Positions 2,458 through 46,841 of a DNA stretch of 50,309 nucleotides are shown here, in pieces. The position numbers and the translations under genes were made by a program. Below the pieces are notes generated by a model that saw only the letters and a list, made by a program, of their open reading frames with translations, was not told where the DNA came from and ran no database searches. The first letter of the stretch is position 1. Every line of letters starts with the position of its first letter. The stretch lies in the sequence record MN296515; one strand, written 5' to 3'. This stretch comes from Shigella phage Sfin-3.

Positions 2458-2991
2458 ATGGATAAAATTACCATTTGGGGTCAAACTATCAACCTGTTTC
2501 TCGGCACGCGATGCGTGGCAATCTTTGACTTTGACGGAACGCTTAGTGATGGATCAAAGCGCCTTCACCTGTTGCCGACAAAGGATTTGCACTTAACTGA
2601 AAGCTGGTCTGAGTTTAACCGAGCGGCAATATTTGATAACCCAATCCAGAGCACGATTGAGGTTATGAACTCTATGTTTGCTGCCGGGTATCACGTAATA
2701 GTTTTAACCGGGCGAAGTGATGAGGTTCGTTACGCATCTGAGTTATGGCTTAAGCATCACGGTGCGAGATATGATTACTTAGTCATGCGACCGCACACAG
2801 ACAACAGGAAAGACACGGTGATGAAAGAAGAAGCGGTTCGAGCGATCGGTATTGAAAACATCCTGGCAGCTTGGGATGACTCACCGCAAATTATTCCATT
2901 ATTCCGGTCGCTTGGAATAACAACATATGCGGTAGTTGACTATGGCGATAACATTCACGATCATTTAAAATCGCACGGGGTAGAGAAATGA
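2458..2991 (+). CDS. HAD-family phosphatase, T4 Pnk 3'-phosphatase-domain-like
   Basis: 177 aa; IFDFDGTLSD (DxDGT motif), VIVLTGRSD, RKDTVMKEE align by eye to the C-terminal phosphatase domain of T4 polynucleotide kinase. Confidence 0.7.
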   Translation: MDKITIWGQTINLFLGTRCVAIFDFDGTLSDGSKRLHLLPTKDLHLTESWSEFNRAAIFDNPIQSTIEVMNSMFAAGYHVIVLTGRSDEVRYASELWLKHHGARYDYLVMRPHTDNRKDTVMKEEAVRAIGIENILAAWDDSPQIIPLFRSLGITTYAVVDYGDNIHDHLKSHGVEK

Positions 2992-3098
2992 ACCTATACG
3001 AATTTATTGCAGCACATCCGGTATTGACGGTTATCATCCTGCTAATCATCAATCACACCATCATCAATATGGCAAAATTATTTTTAGGGAGATACTAA
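2988..3098 (+). CDS. hypothetical small membrane peptide (36 aa)
   Basis: ATG overlaps upstream TGA (ATGA); hydrophobic core VLTVIILLIINHTII; not in ORF track. Confidence 0.3.
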   Translation: MNLYEFIAAHPVLTVIILLIINHTIINMAKLFLGRY

Positions 3099-29245: not shown

Positions 29246-29659
29246 ATGCATATTATTACTGGCGAGATCCGAAAAGAACCTAAGATTCTTGAACGTAACG
29301 GCGGGAATACTTATATAATCGAACTGGCAGAGAGCTACAAGCCTCGAGATGGAGATCGAGAATACACCAACTACACATTCTTTTTTAGCGACGGTGGAAA
29401 GCCTGGCCTTGCTGACTGGTATCGTGAAGCGTTCCAGGTTGGTCGCGTCGTATCAGTATCATGCGAGACGTTGAAGATCTCATCACGTGAACACAATGGA
29501 ACGGTTTACAATTCATTGCAGGCCGCTGACTTCCCGAAGTTGGTATTTAGTCAACGAGGACAAAGCAATCAACAACGATCACCGCAGCAACAACAGCGAA
29601 CACAATCACAACCACAGCCAAATCCTCAATCAACTTTCGATGATGATATCCCGTTCTAA
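29246..29659 (+). CDS. ssb: single-stranded DNA-binding protein
   Basis: 137 aa; OB-fold-like N-terminus, Gln/Pro-rich linker, canonical SSB C-terminal tail DDDIPF. Confidence 0.85.
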   Translation: MHIITGEIRKEPKILERNGGNTYIIELAESYKPRDGDREYTNYTFFFSDGGKPGLADWYREAFQVGRVVSVSCETLKISSREHNGTVYNSLQAADFPKLVFSQRGQSNQQRSPQQQQRTQSQPQPNPQSTFDDDIPF

Positions 29660-31550: not shown

Positions 31551-31574
31551 ATAAAAAACCGCCCGAAGGCGGTT
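31551..31574 (-). terminator. minus-strand terminator after primase gene
   Basis: Minus-strand reading AACCGCC-ttcg-GGCGGTT followed by T6. Confidence 0.6.
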
Positions 31575-32508
31575 ATAGTAGGTCACTTGCTGAGAATAAC
31601 TTAGCTTGCATTCCTGAACGGTATCCTCCAGGATTCGGGATGATTATTTTTAATTGCCGGTCGTCAGCCATGTATAAAGTCTCCTTATCTGAAGGTTCGC
31701 ACGCCACTCTTACCTCGCGATCTCCTTTGTATCTGTACGCAACCATTTCGAGATTTTCAGGAGTGAAGCAGGCCCACACCTCTTGCTTTGTGTGAAATGC
31801 AATATGCTGAGCATCAATCCAATTAAGGCATAAGTAGATCGCTTTTTCAGTTTTACCAGTCACGGCAACCGAGCAACTTGTGTATTTCTTAGCGTAAAAT
31901 GACTCCCTTCCTTCCTCATCAATAATCAAAATATTGCAAAATTCATCATCAAGACCGTCCTCGTGTACAAGTTGACATGGTATGGTGTGAAATACGCTCT
32001 CGCCGCCATCCTCGCGACGTTTTACGCCAACGTCGAATGATTCGGTTGGTAGCGACTCAAACATGCTTAGAGGCGTGTTTACGCGCTTCTCTGTACGCTC
32101 CATGACTTTCATCACTGCCTCATGGTCTGCCATCATGACGTTTACGCCAGCTACCGGAGTGCGGCGCGCTTTCTTATTTGCCTTGACAATGTACTCCTGC
32201 GGAACTTTTCCGAGGAATCTCCCCAAGATGTTTATGCATTCGCTGTACGGCATACCAGTTAATTTCATCAACCAACCGATCCCGGAGTCATTGCCGCATG
32301 AGTTACAGATCGCACCGCCGTCTCCCGGAGTGTTTAGGTTGTCAGTCCAGCGAAAACGGTCTTTGCCGCCGCAGTTAGGGCAAGGCTGGTGCTTCTTGTT
32401 GAATACCTCGTTCGGTAATCCGCAGACGGACTGGAACGCATCGCGCCATAACCCCTTCATATACGGCAATACGTCCTCTTTCTGAAACATCATAAATTCT
32501 TCGTTCAC
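31573..32508 (-). CDS. DNA primase (zinc-ribbon + TOPRIM-like)
   Basis: 311 aa; CPNCGGKDRFRW...CNSCG zinc ribbon then acidic IIDEEG / EDGLDDEF motifs; GTG start 32508 with GGAG RBS (ATG 32493 alternative). Confidence 0.6.
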   Translation of the reverse strand: MNEEFMMFQKEDVLPYMKGLWRDAFQSVCGLPNEVFNKKHQPCPNCGGKDRFRWTDNLNTPGDGGAICNSCGNDSGIGWLMKLTGMPYSECINILGRFLGKVPQEYIVKANKKARRTPVAGVNVMMADHEAVMKVMERTEKRVNTPLSMFESLPTESFDVGVKRREDGGESVFHTIPCQLVHEDGLDDEFCNILIIDEEGRESFYAKKYTSCSVAVTGKTEKAIYLCLNWIDAQHIAFHTKQEVWACFTPENLEMVAYRYKGDREVRVACEPSDKETLYMADDRQLKIIIPNPGGYRSGMQAKLFSASDLL

Positions 32509-33115: not shown

Positions 33116-35134
33116 GTGACAATTAACATCAAAAAGCAAATCGCATTACTTGGCGATGACTATATAAAACGCACTCAAGAACGATTCACTGTTGGTGAGG
33201 TCGTTCCGTATCCGTACCAGGTTGTTGCTTATGCTGAGATCGCAAAACGCCTATCAAATTATGAGCATCCATTCTTTGTTAAAGCGTCAGTATCGGCGGG
33301 TAAGACCATCATTTTTGCTATGGTTGCAAAGCAGTGTCAAAAAATGGGCTTGAAAATGCTTGTGCTGGCACGCCAGGGTGAGATTGTCGATCAGGATAGT
33401 GAAGAGATCGACAATTTCGGGGTGACTAACTCTATATTCTCAGCGTCACTTGGAATCAAGTCTTGCTACTTCCCGATCGTGGTAGGCTCTGAGGGTACTG
33501 TTGCAAATGGTTTAAATAATGAGCTAGCTGATTTTGTCCCTCACGTAATCGGGATAGATGAATGTCACCAGGTGGATTGGGAAGACCTTGCACAAGCCAT
33601 AGATGGCAAGGAAACGATGGAACAGATGCGGGAAGAGAAGGGAAAAATCATTATGAATGGGGAGGTTCCTCTGATTGGTAATGATGGGAAGCCTCTACTT
33701 GGAACTAAGCGAAGCCAATACACGATCGTAATCATGGAAATGATGCGCCGCTGCAAAGAAACTCACGGTCACGACCTCAGAATATTTGGTATGACTGGAT
33801 CTGAATTTCGTGGCGTAGTTCCTATTCTTGTTGAGAATCCAAAGGCGTTAGGCTTCTGGCGTGAGCGCGTTACTGATATAGACACCAACTACCTTATTGA
33901 GTTTGGCTCAGTTGTTCCTACTATATTCGGCTCGACGGACGGAGTTCACTACGATCTTGATAAATTTAAGGCATCAAGCGAGGATGGGGTACAGGACTTT
34001 ACAGAGAAAGATATGAAGGCAATGGAAGATGAGATCCTTCATGATAAATCTCTTACTCAGCGAATCATGCAAATGGTTGCTAAAAAGGCTGAAGAGCGTA
34101 ACGCAGTCCTGATTACATGCGCCGGGGTGCGTCACTGCAAAGAGGCGGCAGCGGCACTACCGCATGGAAGCACATATGCAATTATTACTGGCGACACAGA
34201 CACTAAAACGCGCAAGAAGATTCTTGATGATGTGAGGGCAGGGAAAATTAAATACACCTTTCAGGTCATGGCGCTAACTACTGGCGTTAACGTTCCAAAC
34301 TGGGATTTCAGTGTAATACTTCGCAAGATAGGATCTCTCACCTTGCTGATTCAGCTTTTGGGTAGGGGTATGCGACTTCTTAAATCATGGCAGGTTGCTG
34401 AAGGGATGGTTAAGCAAGACCATCTTGTATGGGATTTCGCAGGCACGATGGATGAGTTGGGGCAGCTTTATTTCGATCCTATACTTGAGCAGGCTCAGTT
34501 CCAGAAGCGATTTGAGAACGGAAAAGACCCGAAAAAGTGTCCGAAATGTGGTTGCGTAAATAGCTTCTACGCTCGCCGATGCGTTAACGTTATCGACGGT
34601 GAACGCTGTGATCATTTCTGGACTTCTCAGATTTGCGAGGACCAGGTTGATGAACGTACCGGGAAAATTCTTGTTAAAGGGTGCGGTGCCGAGAATGACG
34701 TTGTTGCCCGAGTCTGTCGCTGTTGCGATGTTTCTCTTGTTGATCCTAACCTTAAGTTATCCGGTAAGGCGTACACTAAGAATGACTGGTACGAGGTCAA
34801 GAATTTTGAAGTTACGTTAACCAAAAACCAAAAGGGTGTGATATACAAATACACACTTATTAACGACGATGGTGATGAGTTCAAGGCGTATGAAAAATTC
34901 TTCCCTGAGTCAGACTCTAAGATTTGCGGTACGCTATGGAAAACGAAAGGAGTATTGCCTCACGTATCAGATCCTAAAATGCGTCGCTACTTTATCGGAA
35001 TGAAGAACGCTATCAAGATCGTGCAATACGCTCATCATATAGCGCATCCGGTACGCGTTACTCATAGACGCAACCAGAAGAAAGAAGATATTATTTTACG
35101 CAAAGATTTTGGTATGGAGGATATCCCGGAATGA
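33116..35134 (+). CDS. SF2 DNA helicase (DExH box) with C-terminal zinc fingers
   Basis: 672 aa; Q-motif PYPYQ, Walker A SAGKT, DECH box; C-terminal CPKCGC...C...C clusters; GTG start after module 33035-33077. Confidence 0.8.
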   Translation: MTINIKKQIALLGDDYIKRTQERFTVGEVVPYPYQVVAYAEIAKRLSNYEHPFFVKASVSAGKTIIFAMVAKQCQKMGLKMLVLARQGEIVDQDSEEIDNFGVTNSIFSASLGIKSCYFPIVVGSEGTVANGLNNELADFVPHVIGIDECHQVDWEDLAQAIDGKETMEQMREEKGKIIMNGEVPLIGNDGKPLLGTKRSQYTIVIMEMMRRCKETHGHDLRIFGMTGSEFRGVVPILVENPKALGFWRERVTDIDTNYLIEFGSVVPTIFGSTDGVHYDLDKFKASSEDGVQDFTEKDMKAMEDEILHDKSLTQRIMQMVAKKAEERNAVLITCAGVRHCKEAAAALPHGSTYAIITGDTDTKTRKKILDDVRAGKIKYTFQVMALTTGVNVPNWDFSVILRKIGSLTLLIQLLGRGMRLLKSWQVAEGMVKQDHLVWDFAGTMDELGQLYFDPILEQAQFQKRFENGKDPKKCPKCGCVNSFYARRCVNVIDGERCDHFWTSQICEDQVDERTGKILVKGCGAENDVVARVCRCCDVSLVDPNLKLSGKAYTKNDWYEVKNFEVTLTKNQKGVIYKYTLINDDGDEFKAYEKFFPESDSKICGTLWKTKGVLPHVSDPKMRRYFIGMKNAIKIVQYAHHIAHPVRVTHRRNQKKEDIILRKDFGMEDIPE

Positions 35135-35547
35135 TTACAGATAAAGGCGATTACTTAGAGTTTTACGAGCGAGATCCTAGCGACACGCGAAAGGAGGACG
35201 CTCATCAAGTAGACTGCGTGTCCTGGTTGAAATACAATTTTCCTCAGCTTCTATTTTGGCACACAGTTAACGAAGGTGAAAAAACAATCACTTCGGCACT
35301 TAGGGATGAGCAGGCTGGATTACTTAAAGGCGTATCAGACTTTGTTATTCTGATTGGTATAAACTCACGTTACCCGTTCGCAGCTATCGAACTCAAGCGG
35401 GTTAATAAGTCCGGCAAAGGAAAGGCATCACCAGTCAGCGATAAGCAAAGGGAGTTTCTCAAAAAGGTTCGGGATCGCGGTGGATTCTCTGCCGTTGCAT
35501 ACGGATTTGAGCAATTCAAGCTGGCAATATACGATTTAACGAAATAG
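35131..35547 (+). CDS. VRR-NUC domain nuclease
   Basis: 138 aa; GVSDFVI...ELKRVNKSGKGKASPVSDKQREF pattern of VRR-NUC (PD-(D/E)XK) domains. Confidence 0.7.
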   Translation: MITDKGDYLEFYERDPSDTRKEDAHQVDCVSWLKYNFPQLLFWHTVNEGEKTITSALRDEQAGLLKGVSDFVILIGINSRYPFAAIELKRVNKSGKGKASPVSDKQREFLKKVRDRGGFSAVAYGFEQFKLAIYDLTK

Positions 35548-40027: not shown

Positions 40028-40041
40028 CCTCCTTTTCTTTT
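40012..40041. terminator. bidirectional terminator between convergent spanin gene and - strand early arm
   Basis: AGGAGG-cctag-CCTCCT flanked by A5 and T-rich runs; spanin stop codon lies in the loop. Confidence 0.6.
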
Positions 40042-40255
40042 ATGCGTCTTCCCACATATAACTCTCGTTTGTGAGTTTTGCGTATTCGCGAACCTCAATC
40101 TCGCAGGTTTCGCCGTACATCTCAGCGACCTTCTTCTCGTTCGCTACCGCCGTTTCTTCAGTCCATCCATCAGCATTGCTGTAAAGTGTAGGAATCTCAC
40201 TGCTAGTGCCGTTAGAGTGGTTGTAAACGCGAACTACTAAAAATTTGTTAGCCAT
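40040..40255 (-). CDS. hypothetical protein (71 aa)
   Basis: Track ORF; AAGGAAAAC RBS; module 40293-40335 upstream. Confidence 0.55.
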   Translation of the reverse strand: MANKFLVVRVYNHSNGTSSEIPTLYSNADGWTEETAVANEKKVAEMYGETCEIEVREYAKLTNESYMWEDA

Positions 40256-40292: not shown

Positions 40293-40335
40293 AATATACC
40301 CGATACGAGATCGGGTGTTTTAACAAAAAGTGCTA
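40293..40335 (-). promoter_or_regulatory. composite promoter module, minus strand (TAGCA-ctttt-TGTTA, 22 nt, -10 TATATT)
   Basis: Palindrome 40321-40335; hairpin 40298-40316; -10 40293-40298; ATG 40255. Confidence 0.5.
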
Positions 40336-40444
40336 TTTGTACCTTTTCACATGAAGGAGCAACTCCCCATCCTGATTGCAAAGGTTGTGTTCGCTGTCAT
40401 TGTTGGCCCTCATTGAAGTAAGTAACAGGCTGAGTAACCCCTGT

Positions 40445-40852
40445 TCAAATTCTTCCTTTGTAAGCTGGAGTCTTGCGCACAATTCGACGTTCCGATCTAT
40501 CAATGTTTCTACGTTCGCCAAACAAATCCTCATCACTCATCTCTCCAATATGCATCATTTCCCATGTATACCGATTGTTGTAACCATCAATACACATCAG
40601 CTTCATCATTACCGGGCGCTTAATCTTTCCCTTGCACCAGTAAACACCATCCTTGCGATCCAAGTAACCCTCAGTTACGCAACGAGAGCAAAACTCCTTA
40701 GATAGCGCACTTGTAAATTCACGGTGAGTCATTCCAGCAGCCTTAGCAAATCGCTCACTTTCCTTGTGGGCGTATATAAATTTCGCTATGTGCTGTCGGG
40801 TGTATTTGTCGTAACCTTCGCAGAACCTGAACAGATCTAAAAGAAGCAGCAT
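40445..40852 (-). CDS. hypothetical protein (135 aa, Cys-rich), operon partner of P-loop ATPase
   Basis: Track ORF; start 4 nt after stop of upstream ATPase gene. Confidence 0.55.
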   Translation of the reverse strand: MLLLLDLFRFCEGYDKYTRQHIAKFIYAHKESERFAKAAGMTHREFTSALSKEFCSRCVTEGYLDRKDGVYWCKGKIKRPVMMKLMCIDGYNNRYTWEMMHIGEMSDEDLFGERRNIDRSERRIVRKTPAYKGRI

Positions 40853-40856
40853 ATCA

Positions 40857-42425
40857 TTAACCCATCAGTCTAGGATTGATGAAAACAATATCATCAATGC
40901 GGCAAGTGTAGTTCATCTCTTCGAGCGTGATCAGCAGGCTATCGATTCGCTCAGATACTTTCTGTTGACCGTTGAACGGAGTAACGTTCCGGCACTTTGC
41001 AACGATGCTATGAATAGGAGCGCGCCCTTTATTCTTCTTTGCGATCTCAGTGATAACATCAATCAGCTTACGAGATTCAGCCTCATCACCAGCATACCCG
41101 GCAGCGCTGGCAGACGACAGATAAGTCCTGGAAAGCTCATTGAAGATCATGATTGCTTCCTGCATTGTTTCAAGGTCAATCTCACGGTTGGAACGGTTCG
41201 GTGATTCACCCTCCCAATTCTTGATCGTGTGGAGAACTGAAGCAATACGCAAGGCGTGCTTATCGAACTTGCCGAGATGACCGCGTAGCATTGAGTGAGA
41301 GTATTTCCCACCTGCGGCGAAATCCGGTTCCATCGCCTGACGCGAAAGGTTTAATTCACGCATAGCATTACGGCTTACAGAAAGAACAACGTTTTCCTCC
41401 TTCATAATGTTGTGCACGAGTCGATAATATTTACTCACCAATCCTCGATCGACTTCCTTATACAGTGCATCACCATTTTCATCGCAAAGGATACGAGTGC
41501 CTAAAAGAGGTTCCTCACGAACAAGAAGGAAGCGCTCAGATACGCCGATTCCTCGTTGGCCTGCGTCCATGATACCCTTGATTGTTTCATCCTGCGCAAT
41601 AACGCAGATGGAACCGACCGGGCAAAGGGACAAGTTGTTATCCTGGTTGGAACGCGCTACCTCCATATGGTTTTTATCCCACGCCTTAAGGATAAGCTCA
41701 CTATTTGATTTCTTGTCTGAACCACCATAAGTCAGGCCGAGCAATGTATTGATTGCTGTCGCCTCATCAGAGATTACGGAGAAATGACCTTGAACAGCGG
41801 CTACCTTCGCAAGACCTTCAGGTGTAGGATCTGATACCGCGAAAACAATATCAGCCATCTTCTTGATCTTCTCTTCCAGTTTTTCCTTGTCCTCGTACAG
41901 CGCCGCCGTCGTGTTACCCTTCGGGTCGTTTTTAATTTCCTTCTCGACCTGACGTAGCTGACTGGTTAAACGGATACGTTCCTTTTTTCGCTCTTCATTC
42001 AGTCGCTGAATCTCTGCGCGCATAGGCGTAATCGCTGCGGAGTTAATCGCAGATTTACCTGTTGAAGGTGGCTGGCTGATTACCATGTAAAGAGCGGTAG
42101 GTTGTTCTTCTCCGTGATATTGCACCCAAAACTTCCCGAGCATCGCGGCTGAGATGCACCCAATGAAATGAGCGTACGCAGACGAAACAGGGAACTGTAC
42201 AGACTCGGCCTTTGCTTTTGCATATTCGAATACCAGGTTATCGCCACCTAACGAAATCAGAGGGAACTTATCGTTGCCGCTATTGATATCGATCGGATCT
42301 TGCCAAAATGAAACTGAGTCACCATAGCTGTTTTCACGAATTGCGATTGCCACCGGATTAACTCCAGTGCTATTGGCGATCTCAATAATCTGTTGGTAAT
42401 TCAGTTTTGGCTTAATATTAAACAT
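40857..42425 (-). CDS. P-loop NTPase (Walker A/B), putative replication/helicase-like ATPase
   Basis: ATG 42425 with AAGGAG RBS (track TTG 42488 is inside promoter hairpin); Walker A QPPSTGKSA, Walker B FSVISDEA; 522 aa. Confidence 0.6.
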   Translation of the reverse strand: MFNIKPKLNYQQIIEIANSTGVNPVAIAIRENSYGDSVSFWQDPIDINSGNDKFPLISLGGDNLVFEYAKAKAESVQFPVSSAYAHFIGCISAAMLGKFWVQYHGEEQPTALYMVISQPPSTGKSAINSAAITPMRAEIQRLNEERKKERIRLTSQLRQVEKEIKNDPKGNTTAALYEDKEKLEEKIKKMADIVFAVSDPTPEGLAKVAAVQGHFSVISDEATAINTLLGLTYGGSDKKSNSELILKAWDKNHMEVARSNQDNNLSLCPVGSICVIAQDETIKGIMDAGQRGIGVSERFLLVREEPLLGTRILCDENGDALYKEVDRGLVSKYYRLVHNIMKEENVVLSVSRNAMRELNLSRQAMEPDFAAGGKYSHSMLRGHLGKFDKHALRIASVLHTIKNWEGESPNRSNREIDLETMQEAIMIFNELSRTYLSSASAAGYAGDEAESRKLIDVITEIAKKNKGRAPIHSIVAKCRNVTPFNGQQKVSERIDSLLITLEEMNYTCRIDDIVFINPRLMG

Positions 42426-42454
42426 CACAATAAACTCCTTAGTTGACGGTGTAA

Positions 42455-42497
42455 ATGATACACCGCCAATGGTATACGCTTTTTGCAAAAAGTGCTA
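42455..42497 (-). promoter_or_regulatory. composite promoter module, minus strand (TAGCA-ctttt-TGCAA, 22 nt, -10 TATCAT)
   Basis: Palindrome 42483-42497; -10 42455-42460 inside hairpin 42448-42464; ATG 42425. Confidence 0.5.
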
Positions 42498-42501
42498 TTG
42501 G

Positions 42502-42918
42502 TTATAAGTATTTGGCCTCAAAGGTTGTGCCGTCTGCGATACTAAAACCAACCTCTTCGCGAAACAAGGTCCATCGACAACCATCTTCATCAAAGATGTA
42601 ACCAGCTACGCCACCGAGAGCGCGACCGCTTTCAACCTGGTAACGCTTGCCAACTTTGAATGATTTTTTCATTGGGTTGCGATGGTCAAGCCCGGTGCAC
42701 TTGAGCGTCTTTGTTTTCAACTCAGTGAACTTCGCGAAGAAGATTTCATCAGATCCGTGAATCTGTAATTCATCATGCTTTTCAAGTTTTAAATACTTGC
42801 CGCATTTTAACTTGATTTCACGAGTGCCATCATAGCGCTCACGACCCTTGTATAGGTTGTTTACTTCAAATCCTGTGATTTTATCTGTGTAAGTGCATTT
42901 CAGTTTGATGGATTTCAT
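42502..42918 (-). CDS. hypothetical protein (138 aa)
   Basis: Track ORF; AACCAATCAGGAG RBS; module 42955-42997 upstream. Confidence 0.55.
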   Translation of the reverse strand: MKSIKLKCTYTDKITGFEVNNLYKGRERYDGTREIKLKCGKYLKLEKHDELQIHGSDEIFFAKFTELKTKTLKCTGLDHRNPMKKSFKVGKRYQVESGRALGGVAGYIFDEDGCRWTLFREEVGFSIADGTTFEAKYL

Positions 42919-46188: not shown

Positions 46189-46233
46189 ATCATACACTGC
46201 CAGCCTGACCAGGTCGTTAGCAAAAAATGCTAT
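46189..46233 (-). promoter_or_regulatory. composite promoter module, minus strand (perfect TAGCA-ttttt-TGCTA, 24 nt, -10 TATGAT)
   Basis: Palindrome 46219-46233; -10 46189-46194; ATG 46158. Confidence 0.5.
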
Positions 46234-46433
46234 TCCAATAGTTGCTCATTATTCCACCAGTAATGGAATATCTGGAATAATTGCGATCCCGATTGATCTC
46301 GAATGATGAAATGTGATTGTTGCATGATGTGCAACTGTTGATGTGATTGTTGCTTGGAATGCAATGATTGTGAGAGGGAGGATTTAGTGTTACCCGGTTC
46401 GCCTGGTAGTCATCTCCATTTTTAGCAAAACGT

Positions 46434-46448
46434 GCTATCGATTACACT
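46434..46448 (-). promoter_or_regulatory. palindrome copy (TAGCA-cgttt-TGCTA) without evident -10
   Basis: Minus-strand orientation in intergenic region B; no TATAAT-like hexamer at 22-24 nt. Confidence 0.35.
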
Positions 46449-46754
46449 TTAACTTGTCACGACTGTAATATTTGTCTAGAATCGCACTTGTGACAAAATT
46501 ACGCACTGTGACGCATAACAATAGACATGTAGATATATGTATATATATAATATATATAGTGTTTTTTTATTTATATATATAGATAATCATATTGTAATGG
46601 TTGTGTATAGCCGTCTTACATTGTCTAGCGTACTGTTGGCATATTTCTATCTGCATGTTTATATATACAGTACTTTTTTGAGAGCCATATATTTCTATAT
46701 GGACCCTAGACAGCTAGACAAATGTTACACAGCTTAAAATTGGCTCGCAGGCAT

Positions 46755-46783
46755 TGACAGCCCTACATTGCGCCGTCACAATG
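46755..46783 (+). promoter_or_regulatory. weak sigma70-like promoter candidate (TTGACA-17-CACAAT)
   Basis: -35 46755-46760 perfect, -10 46778-46783 poor; in AT-rich region B upstream of gene 46842. Confidence 0.3.
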
Positions 46784-46841
46784 GCAATTGTTGACATGTT
46801 ATGACAACATTTACACATCAATAGACAAATAAGGATGAATT

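Follow-up and report, generated by a model that had tools for sequence, protein, structure and literature searches.

A predicted MCM-like DUF3987 helicase and its linked winged-helix partner in the T1-like Shigella phage Sfin-3

Phage proteins of the DUF3987 family have been described as divergent superfamily 6 (SF6) helicases with a winged helix-turn-helix (wHTH) domain at the C-terminus and are predicted to be replicative; they are often fused or adjacent to primases of the AEP (archaeo-eukaryotic primase) or DnaG type, and dns, an essential protein of phage N4, belongs to the family (Kazlauskas et al., 2016; PMC4889955). The same replicative prediction was made for primase fusions in mobile elements (Kazlauskas et al., 2018). 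In a 2025 study of a purified PriCT-DUF3987 protein, AgaPH was found to oligomerize, to bind its primase-polymerase, and to carry out ATP/dATP-dependent 5'-3' unwinding, which was abolished by Walker A and B mutations (PMC11724360). Considered here is a two-gene unit of Shigella phage Sfin-3 (sequence record MN296515; the whole 50,309-nucleotide stretch that was analyzed is called the window), in which the gene for a 522-aa ATPase of this family is followed by the gene for a 135-aa basic protein, referred to as the partner. The window is the genome of a T1-like phage (Tunavirus, Drexlerviridae). With moderate confidence, the 522-aa protein can be regarded as the replicative, minichromosome maintenance (MCM)-like DUF3987 helicase of T1-like phages, with an accessory role tentatively favored for the partner; the direct support comes from family membership, predicted fold, motif conservation, and gene linkage. 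The two genes are:

40857-42425, minus strand: gene for the 522-aa DUF3987/MCM-like AAA+ (SF6) helicase, ortholog of T1 ST9
40445-40852, minus strand: gene for the 135-aa basic partner, ortholog of T1 ST10, phrog_2794

Both open reading frames (ORFs) are as given in a preliminary description made from the sequence alone: they lie on the minus strand, encode 522 and 135 aa, and are separated by 4 nt. The helicase ATG at 42425 is 9 nt after an AAGGAG ribosome-binding site, with alternative starts at a GTG one codon upstream (42428) and at an in-frame TTG (42488); the helicase stop codon occupies 40857-40859 and the partner ATG 40850-40852, which gives the 4-nt gap. That both are real genes is borne out by relatives in 924 (helicase) and 834 (partner) phage records and by differences from T1 that are mostly synonymous. 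The helicase differs from T1 at 91 synonymous and 4 non-synonymous codons and the partner at 19 synonymous and 8 non-synonymous codons; because these differences are overwhelmingly synonymous, both genes are taken to be under purifying selection. A megablast search with 40300-42600 found matches of 80-99% identity in 93 phage records, and every record belongs to a T1-like phage of Escherichia, Shigella, Citrobacter, or Salmonella. T1 ST9 is labeled "DNA helicase" in RefSeq and "putative ATPase" in the original record, and T1 ST10 is a hypothetical protein; in LeonhardEuler, a BASEL phage, bas13_0045 ("putative helicase") and bas13_0044 are the counterparts.

The 522-aa protein scores 144.2 bits on Pfam DUF3987 (PF13148), where the gathering cutoff is 27, and its residues 78-432 align in one unbroken stretch with profile positions 2-355 of 364; it also matches phrog_2373 ("DNA helicase") at E=1.7e-233. 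From its membership in DUF3987 and phrog_2373, the protein is therefore a member of the SF6-type AAA+ helicase family and is not DnaB-like. The preliminary description had treated the ATPase as uncharacterized and had compared its Walker A motif with that of DnaB-type proteins. At the family level the first label no longer applies, given the DUF3987 score, the "DNA helicase" annotation in RefSeq and PHROGs, the 2016 prediction, and the 2025 assay; the helicase assignment is already in databases and literature. The likeness to DnaB is superficial: the predicted fold is AAA+/MCM-like rather than RecA/DnaB, which rules out a DnaB-type (superfamily 4, RecA-fold) identity for the ATPase. Searched against PDB sequences, the two proteins gave chance-level matches only, whether as single sequences or as profiles, and no solved structure for the 522-aa ATPase was detectable by sequence; NCBIfam gave zero matches for the helicase, the partner, or the neighboring genes.

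Conservation within the helicase was read from 30 aligned homologs (identity down to 35%), and an AlphaFold2 model was run on the same alignment (predicted local distance difference test score (pLDDT) 89, predicted template modeling score (pTM) 0.87). The elements recognized are:

42051-42074, minus strand: Walker A/P-loop QPPSTGKS (residues 118-125), after predicted strand E113-117
41859-42062, minus strand: long charged helical hairpin (residues 122-189), a continuation of the Walker A helix
41760-41777, minus strand: Walker B VISDEA (residues 217-222), its first residues on predicted strand E214-219, with D220 and E221 following
41586-41603, minus strand: VIAQDE (residues 275-280), putative sensor-1 strand, at the end of predicted strand E270-277
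41529-41540, minus strand: SERF (residues 296-299), putative arginine finger like the MCM SRF motif, leading into strand E299-303
40878-41087, minus strand: C-terminal winged-helix domain of the helicase (residues ~447-516), from predicted structure

The two motifs of the preliminary description are confirmed, QPPSTGKSA from residue 118 on and VISDEA from residue 217. The SF6 motif set is present, with K124, E221, D279/E280, and R298 invariant and D220 variable (alanine in several homologs); also invariant are Q118, P119, P120, S121, and G123 in Walker A, I276 and A277 in VIAQDE, G294, S296, E297, and F299 in and around SERF, and R381 and G382 farther on. SERF is placed 19 residues past the sensor-1 strand, which fits the AAA+ order; from this motif order, VIAQDE is a putative sensor-1 strand and R298 a putative trans-acting arginine finger.

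In the model, a helical N-terminus (residues 10-94) precedes the AAA+ core, which includes a β-hairpin at 254-267 and is followed by a helical lid domain. The preliminary description had placed a charged coiled-coil insert between Walker A and Walker B. The charged stretch is there (40% charged residues in this interval) and forms a helical hairpin in the model, with helices H122-166 and H173-189; it is not an insert specific to T1-like phages, since the Pfam profile aligns uninterrupted through residues 78-432, making the hairpin a feature of the DUF3987 family. The C-terminal ~300 aa, in which no motif had been named, hold the putative sensor-1 strand VIAQDE, SERF, the lid domain, and the C-terminal winged helix. 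In fold comparison the AAA+ core is closest to the MCM ATPase domain, in alignments with MCM that span only ~250 residues; as modeled, the 522-aa protein resembles the MCM proteins but is not one of them.

Linkage of the two genes was assessed in 80 IMG/VR metagenomic loci encoding a partner homolog (37-96% partner identity), 78 of which include upstream sequence. The helicase is directly upstream of the partner, on the same strand, in 77 of these 78; the exception, HCF1, is anomalous and comes from an unverified assembly. The partner start is -2 to +6 nt from the helicase stop in 73/78 loci, and in four others the gap is 86-528 nt. The tight stop/start arrangement suggests that translation of the partner is coupled to the helicase gene. 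Different Drexlerviridae carry HNH homing-endonuclease genes at one border of the helicase gene or the other, and none is present in the Sfin-3 window; in T1, the HNH gene ST8 is just upstream of the helicase (2213-2752 in locus L001).

The partner matches phrog_2794 at E=4.7e-66, and neither Pfam nor NCBIfam gives a match for it at E<=1. Its relatives occur in 834 phage records (826 near full length), and all listed ones are Drexlerviridae; the difference from the 924 records with a helicase relative is partly due to phages outside Drexlerviridae that have the helicase only. A profile search through 1.84 billion protein representatives returned only 20 partner matches, with length and sequence fitting the same narrow family. 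The partner is restricted to Drexlerviridae. Several GenBank records (e.g., EF3-1, orkinos, tonn, and JLBYU41) give it the label "YdbL" or "YbdL", which looks like a propagated annotation error; the label appears unfounded because the partner has no Pfam or NCBIfam match. Two segments of the protein stand out:

40634-40798, minus strand: winged-helix core of the partner (residues 19-73), from predicted structure
40520-40540, minus strand: acidic-aromatic motif MSDEDLF (residues 105-111), consensus [ST]D[DES]x[LIF]F, which closes the conserved region

The AlphaFold model of the partner (pLDDT 84) shows a winged helix (helices H19-28, H32-38, and H43-60, and a hairpin at 64-73), three short helices, and a disordered tail; the three-helix bundle with a β-hairpin wing is the arrangement that defines a winged helix. 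The protein is basic (isoelectric point (pI) 9.3), and the residues invariant among homologs to 30% identity are C11, E12, A36, E53, R57, G62, Y63, P80, D107, and F111. Five cysteines are present (positions 11, 55, 58, 73, and 87), and yet "Cys-rich" is a misleading description of a predicted winged helix in which C11 is the only invariant cysteine. C55 and C58 (the CxxC), C73, and C87 are replaced in homologs, so the partner is not a zinc finger and that candidate was rejected. In short partner homologs the acidic-aromatic motif falls at the C-terminal end or close to it, and it is a possible docking peptide; residues 112-135 beyond it form a variable, basic, disordered tail (pLDDT below 50, pI 11.6). 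A BFVD fold search with the partner found its own family plus a "DNA primase" (529 aa) and a "Helicase" (345 aa) of Vibrio phage Vc1. The current Vc1 record has an ordinary 527-aa helicase followed by a 128-aa partner, so the BFVD entries were treated as stale, mis-called ORFs and a partner-primase fusion in Vc1 was rejected.

Other replication and recombination genes of the window bear on the role of the helicase:

31573-32508, minus strand: primase (Zn_Ribbon_Prim, phrog_510)
33116-35134, plus strand: superfamily 2 (SF2) helicase (ResIII and Helicase_C)
35131-35547, plus strand: VRR-NUC nuclease, overlapping the SF2 helicase gene by 4 nt
29246-29659, plus strand: phage-encoded SSB (single-stranded DNA-binding protein), phrog_44, ending in ...QSTFDDDIPF

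A primase and an SF2 helicase are thus encoded elsewhere, as had been pointed out, and the preliminary description offered a second replicative helicase as one role for the ATPase. The DUF3987 protein is probably the sole replicative helicase of the phage rather than a second one. Because the SF2 helicase gene overlaps the VRR-NUC nuclease gene, it points to recombination or repair; the two are grouped with a RecE-like PDDEXK nuclease and an Erf protein, and are suggestive of a branch-processing, recombination, or repair pair rather than of a fork helicase. No DnaB-type helicase or loader was found among the scanned ORFs of the window or in the T1 annotation, and the T1 record annotates no DNA polymerase, with none seen among the scanned ORFs. 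A re-annotation of phage TLS also reports that the polymerase gene is absent from T1 and TLS; it treats only the primase and the SF2 helicase and reports no iterons (PMC11447400). In two more distant phages, STGO-35-1 and pYD38-A (35-37% identity), the DUF3987 gene adjoins the primase and SF2 helicase genes. The last residues of the phage SSB, FDDDIPF, are those of the C-terminal acidic tip of E. coli SSB; because the phage protein carries this E. coli-like tip, the phage replisome is suggested to recruit host SSB-binding replication proteins through it. A role in replication is the best reading of the ATPase, and the earlier view is upheld in that the protein is a P-loop ATPase from a helicase family and has a small partner tightly linked to it. 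Known biology had been set as the outcome if there were clear homology to a replication protein family and a partner conserved across T1-like phages, and this is largely what was found.

Hexamer formation, helicase activity and its polarity, the replicative role, and every function of the partner are inferred from these data. The helicase would consist of a small helical N-terminal domain, an AAA+ core, a helical hairpin typical of the family behind the P-loop helix, a lid domain, and, at the C-terminus, a winged helix; it probably assembles as a ring and would unwind phage DNA with ATP. It may cooperate with the DnaG-type primase of the phage and with the phage SSB bearing the host SSB tip, synthesis being carried out by the host DNA polymerase III (Pol III) holoenzyme, the presumed polymerase because none is annotated in T1 or was seen among the scanned ORFs. 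The partner would bind DNA through its winged helix and basic tail and dock through the acidic-aromatic peptide onto the helicase or a host replisome protein, acting as a loader or adaptor. That the partner is a helicase accessory of this kind, loader or adaptor, is offered tentatively, at somewhat less than even probability. A more specific version, in which it is a licensing or adaptor factor that loads the MCM-like ring without iterons and couples it to host Pol III through [ST]Dxx[LIF]F, is unlikely as it stands; the motif resembles the acidic-aromatic tip of SSB and clamp-binding peptides.

The sequence around the unit contains promoter-like modules and a small additional gene:

42427-42496, minus strand: promoter-like module upstream of the helicase, with AGCACTTTTTG at 42486-42496, TG plus a -10-like TATCAT, then AAGGAG
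40298-40334, minus strand: end of the two-gene unit, with the next AGCACTTTTTG module at 40324-40334 and a stem-loop plus T-run at 40298-40316
40040-40255, minus strand: separate 71-aa ORF, phrog_27210, with its own AGCACTTTTTG module

The claim that the unit has its own promoter module agrees with the sequence, in which AGCACTTTTTG just upstream of the helicase and a -10-like hexamer make a promoter-like arrangement. There are 14 copies of AGCACTTTTTG in the window against 1.4 expected (tenfold), and in several intergenic copies it is ~22-25 nt before a -10-like hexamer, as counted by eye; judged from the sequence, the TTGYTA inside AGCACTTTTTG is too far from the hexamer for a standard -35 element. 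Intergenic copies are oriented with the downstream genes, and the spacer often holds a small hairpin. Sites of the extended motif AGCACTTTTTG(Y)TAAA include 33036, 35546, 40324, 42486, 44853, 45318, 46221, 46426, 47374, and 49135. The 71-aa ORF, flanked by the partner gene on one side and the convergent spanin gene on the other, resembles a moron-type insertion. LeonhardEuler has it annotated and T1 does not; in T1 the distance from ST10 to the terminator is only ~117 nt. A ~650-bp noncoding region (46198-46841) between divergent minus- and plus-strand operons corresponds to the ends of the T1 record; it holds a (TA)n palindromic tract at 46530-46586, two ATGTGATTGTTGC copies at 46311 and 46341 (30 nt apart), and several words that resemble GTCACA/TGTGAC.

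The gene on the other side of the helicase has a relative with a described phenotype:

42502-42918, minus strand: 138-aa gene immediately upstream of the helicase, homologous to T1 ST7, phrog_2684

Its product is 60% identical to a 128-aa protein of phage SECphi27 over the C-terminal 75 aa (E=8e-31). The SECphi27 protein triggers the Mokosh type I defense system, and a phage that escaped Mokosh had a frameshift at codon 7 of the trigger gene (Stokar-Avihail et al.), which shows the trigger gene to be dispensable. The partner was considered as the counterpart of the SECphi27 trigger and rejected; the homolog of the trigger is the gene upstream of the helicase.

Several observations weigh against the helicase-and-accessory interpretation. 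The canonical N-terminal tier of MCM, with its OB-fold and zinc finger, is absent, residues 1-95 being all-helical, and the helicase carries a winged-helix domain of its own. The partner's winged-helix fold matches are generic, with none specific to loaders. Because gene order is conserved throughout Drexlerviridae, adjacency of the two genes is weak, supportive evidence of a functional link; in MezzoGao, an HNH endonuclease gene (2475-3017 in locus L008) lies between helicase and partner. The nearest outgroup phages with the same helicase (Pappous, STGO-35-1, and pYD38-A) have no partner and carry unrelated small genes there instead, which belong to other PHROGs and gave no relationship to the partner in hhalign comparisons; the partner is therefore not a general requirement of DUF3987 helicases. 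No iteron-like repeat array or origin above shuffle level was found in or near the pair or elsewhere in the window, and for this reason a classical origin-binding initiator role for the partner is not favored. A literature search found no experimental work on the gene pair or on the family members from Drexlerviridae.

Chief among the alternatives, the partner could be a plain winged-helix transcription regulator that serves, for example, the early-to-middle switch or the nearby promoter modules and is co-transcribed with the helicase while remaining outside its mechanism. This is somewhat unlikely. The protein is basic, the repeated promoter-associated AGCACTTTTTG could be the target through its 14 copies, and the outgroup phages manage with the same helicase and no partner; however, the stop/start spacing of -2 to +6 nt is kept in 73/78 loci across deep divergence, a Cro-like regulator (phrog_2856) is already encoded beside the primase gene, and [ST]Dxx[LIF]F looks like a protein-docking motif rather than a feature of a regulator. 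A different doubt concerns the ATPase, which might be an auxiliary translocase, for instance in recombination-dependent replication, fork restart, or concatemer processing, the fork being driven by host DnaB or by the phage SF2 helicase. DUF3987 proteins are consistently associated with or fused to primases and replace MCM, DnaB, or RepA domains in primase-helicases; N4 dns, a DUF3987 domain protein, is reported to be indispensable for replication, forked DNA is unwound by AgaPH, which also binds its primase-polymerase, and the DUF3987 gene adjoins the primase gene in outgroup phages. Together with the very strong conservation of the gene (4 non-synonymous against 91 synonymous codon differences from T1), these points speak for a fork helicase and make the translocase role quite improbable, even though T1-like phages encode a full recombination set (RecE-like PDDEXK nuclease, Erf, SF2 helicase plus VRR-NUC), no origin or iterons were found in the window, and the literature search found no experiment on the Drexlerviridae clade.

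The pair might also be a host-takeover or anti-defense module unrelated to replication, as its position among small genes of unknown function and next to a homolog of the Mokosh type I trigger could be taken to indicate. Family and fold evidence for a helicase is strong, however, and the pair is conserved in essentially all Drexlerviridae, unlike accessory genes, and this last explanation is very improbable indeed.

To our knowledge, the replication machinery of the classical coliphage T1 has never been reconstituted. Placing its main ATPase among MCM-like proteins gives a concrete replisome model of helicase, DnaG-type primase, phage SSB, and host Pol III. The helicase assignment itself adds little, because it is already in databases and literature; what offers a new handle is the partner, a winged-helix protein confined to this lineage and apparently coupled in translation to the helicase. 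If the partner is a loader or host-polymerase adaptor, it would show how a helicase of archaeal/eukaryotic type works inside a bacterial replisome, and the adaptor reading, if true, would provide a minimal, tractable case of an MCM-like helicase grafted onto that replisome.

Compared with known systems, the partner could be likened by analogy to lambda P, SPP1 G39P/G38P, and T4 gp59, small proteins encoded beside or acting on a replicative helicase and needed for its placement on DNA; those proteins, however, serve DnaB-type (RecA-fold) helicases and have no detectable sequence or fold-specific similarity to the partner. The SCCmec protein Cch, an MCM-like self-loading helicase, belongs to another Pfam family (DUF927) and is a far weaker match than MCM. 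Archaeal and eukaryotic MCM share only 10-15% sequence identity with the T1-type protein, which is without the OB-fold or zinc-finger N-terminal tier and has a long helical hairpin after the P-loop helix; polarity also differs, in that the assayed DUF3987 member, AgaPH, moves 5'-3' and MCM moves 3'-5'. N4 dns and other phage DUF3987 helicases are of the same family, with a predicted replicative SF6 role and a C-terminal wHTH, and differ in that N4 dns has a C-terminal AEP primase domain whereas the T1-type protein stands alone. AgaPH, from a mobile element of Seonamhaeicola sp. S2-3 that carries a prokaryotic Argonaute (pAgo), shares the DUF3987 core, Walker A and B, and a small C-terminal domain, and works with a primase. 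It has an N-terminal PriCT domain in place of the different ~95-aa helical N-terminus of the T1-type protein, and it is encoded right after an AEP primase-polymerase, whereas the T1-type protein has its primase, one of the zinc-ribbon DnaG/T7-gp4 type, encoded ~8 kb away; the T1-type helicase, in turn, is followed by its winged-helix partner.

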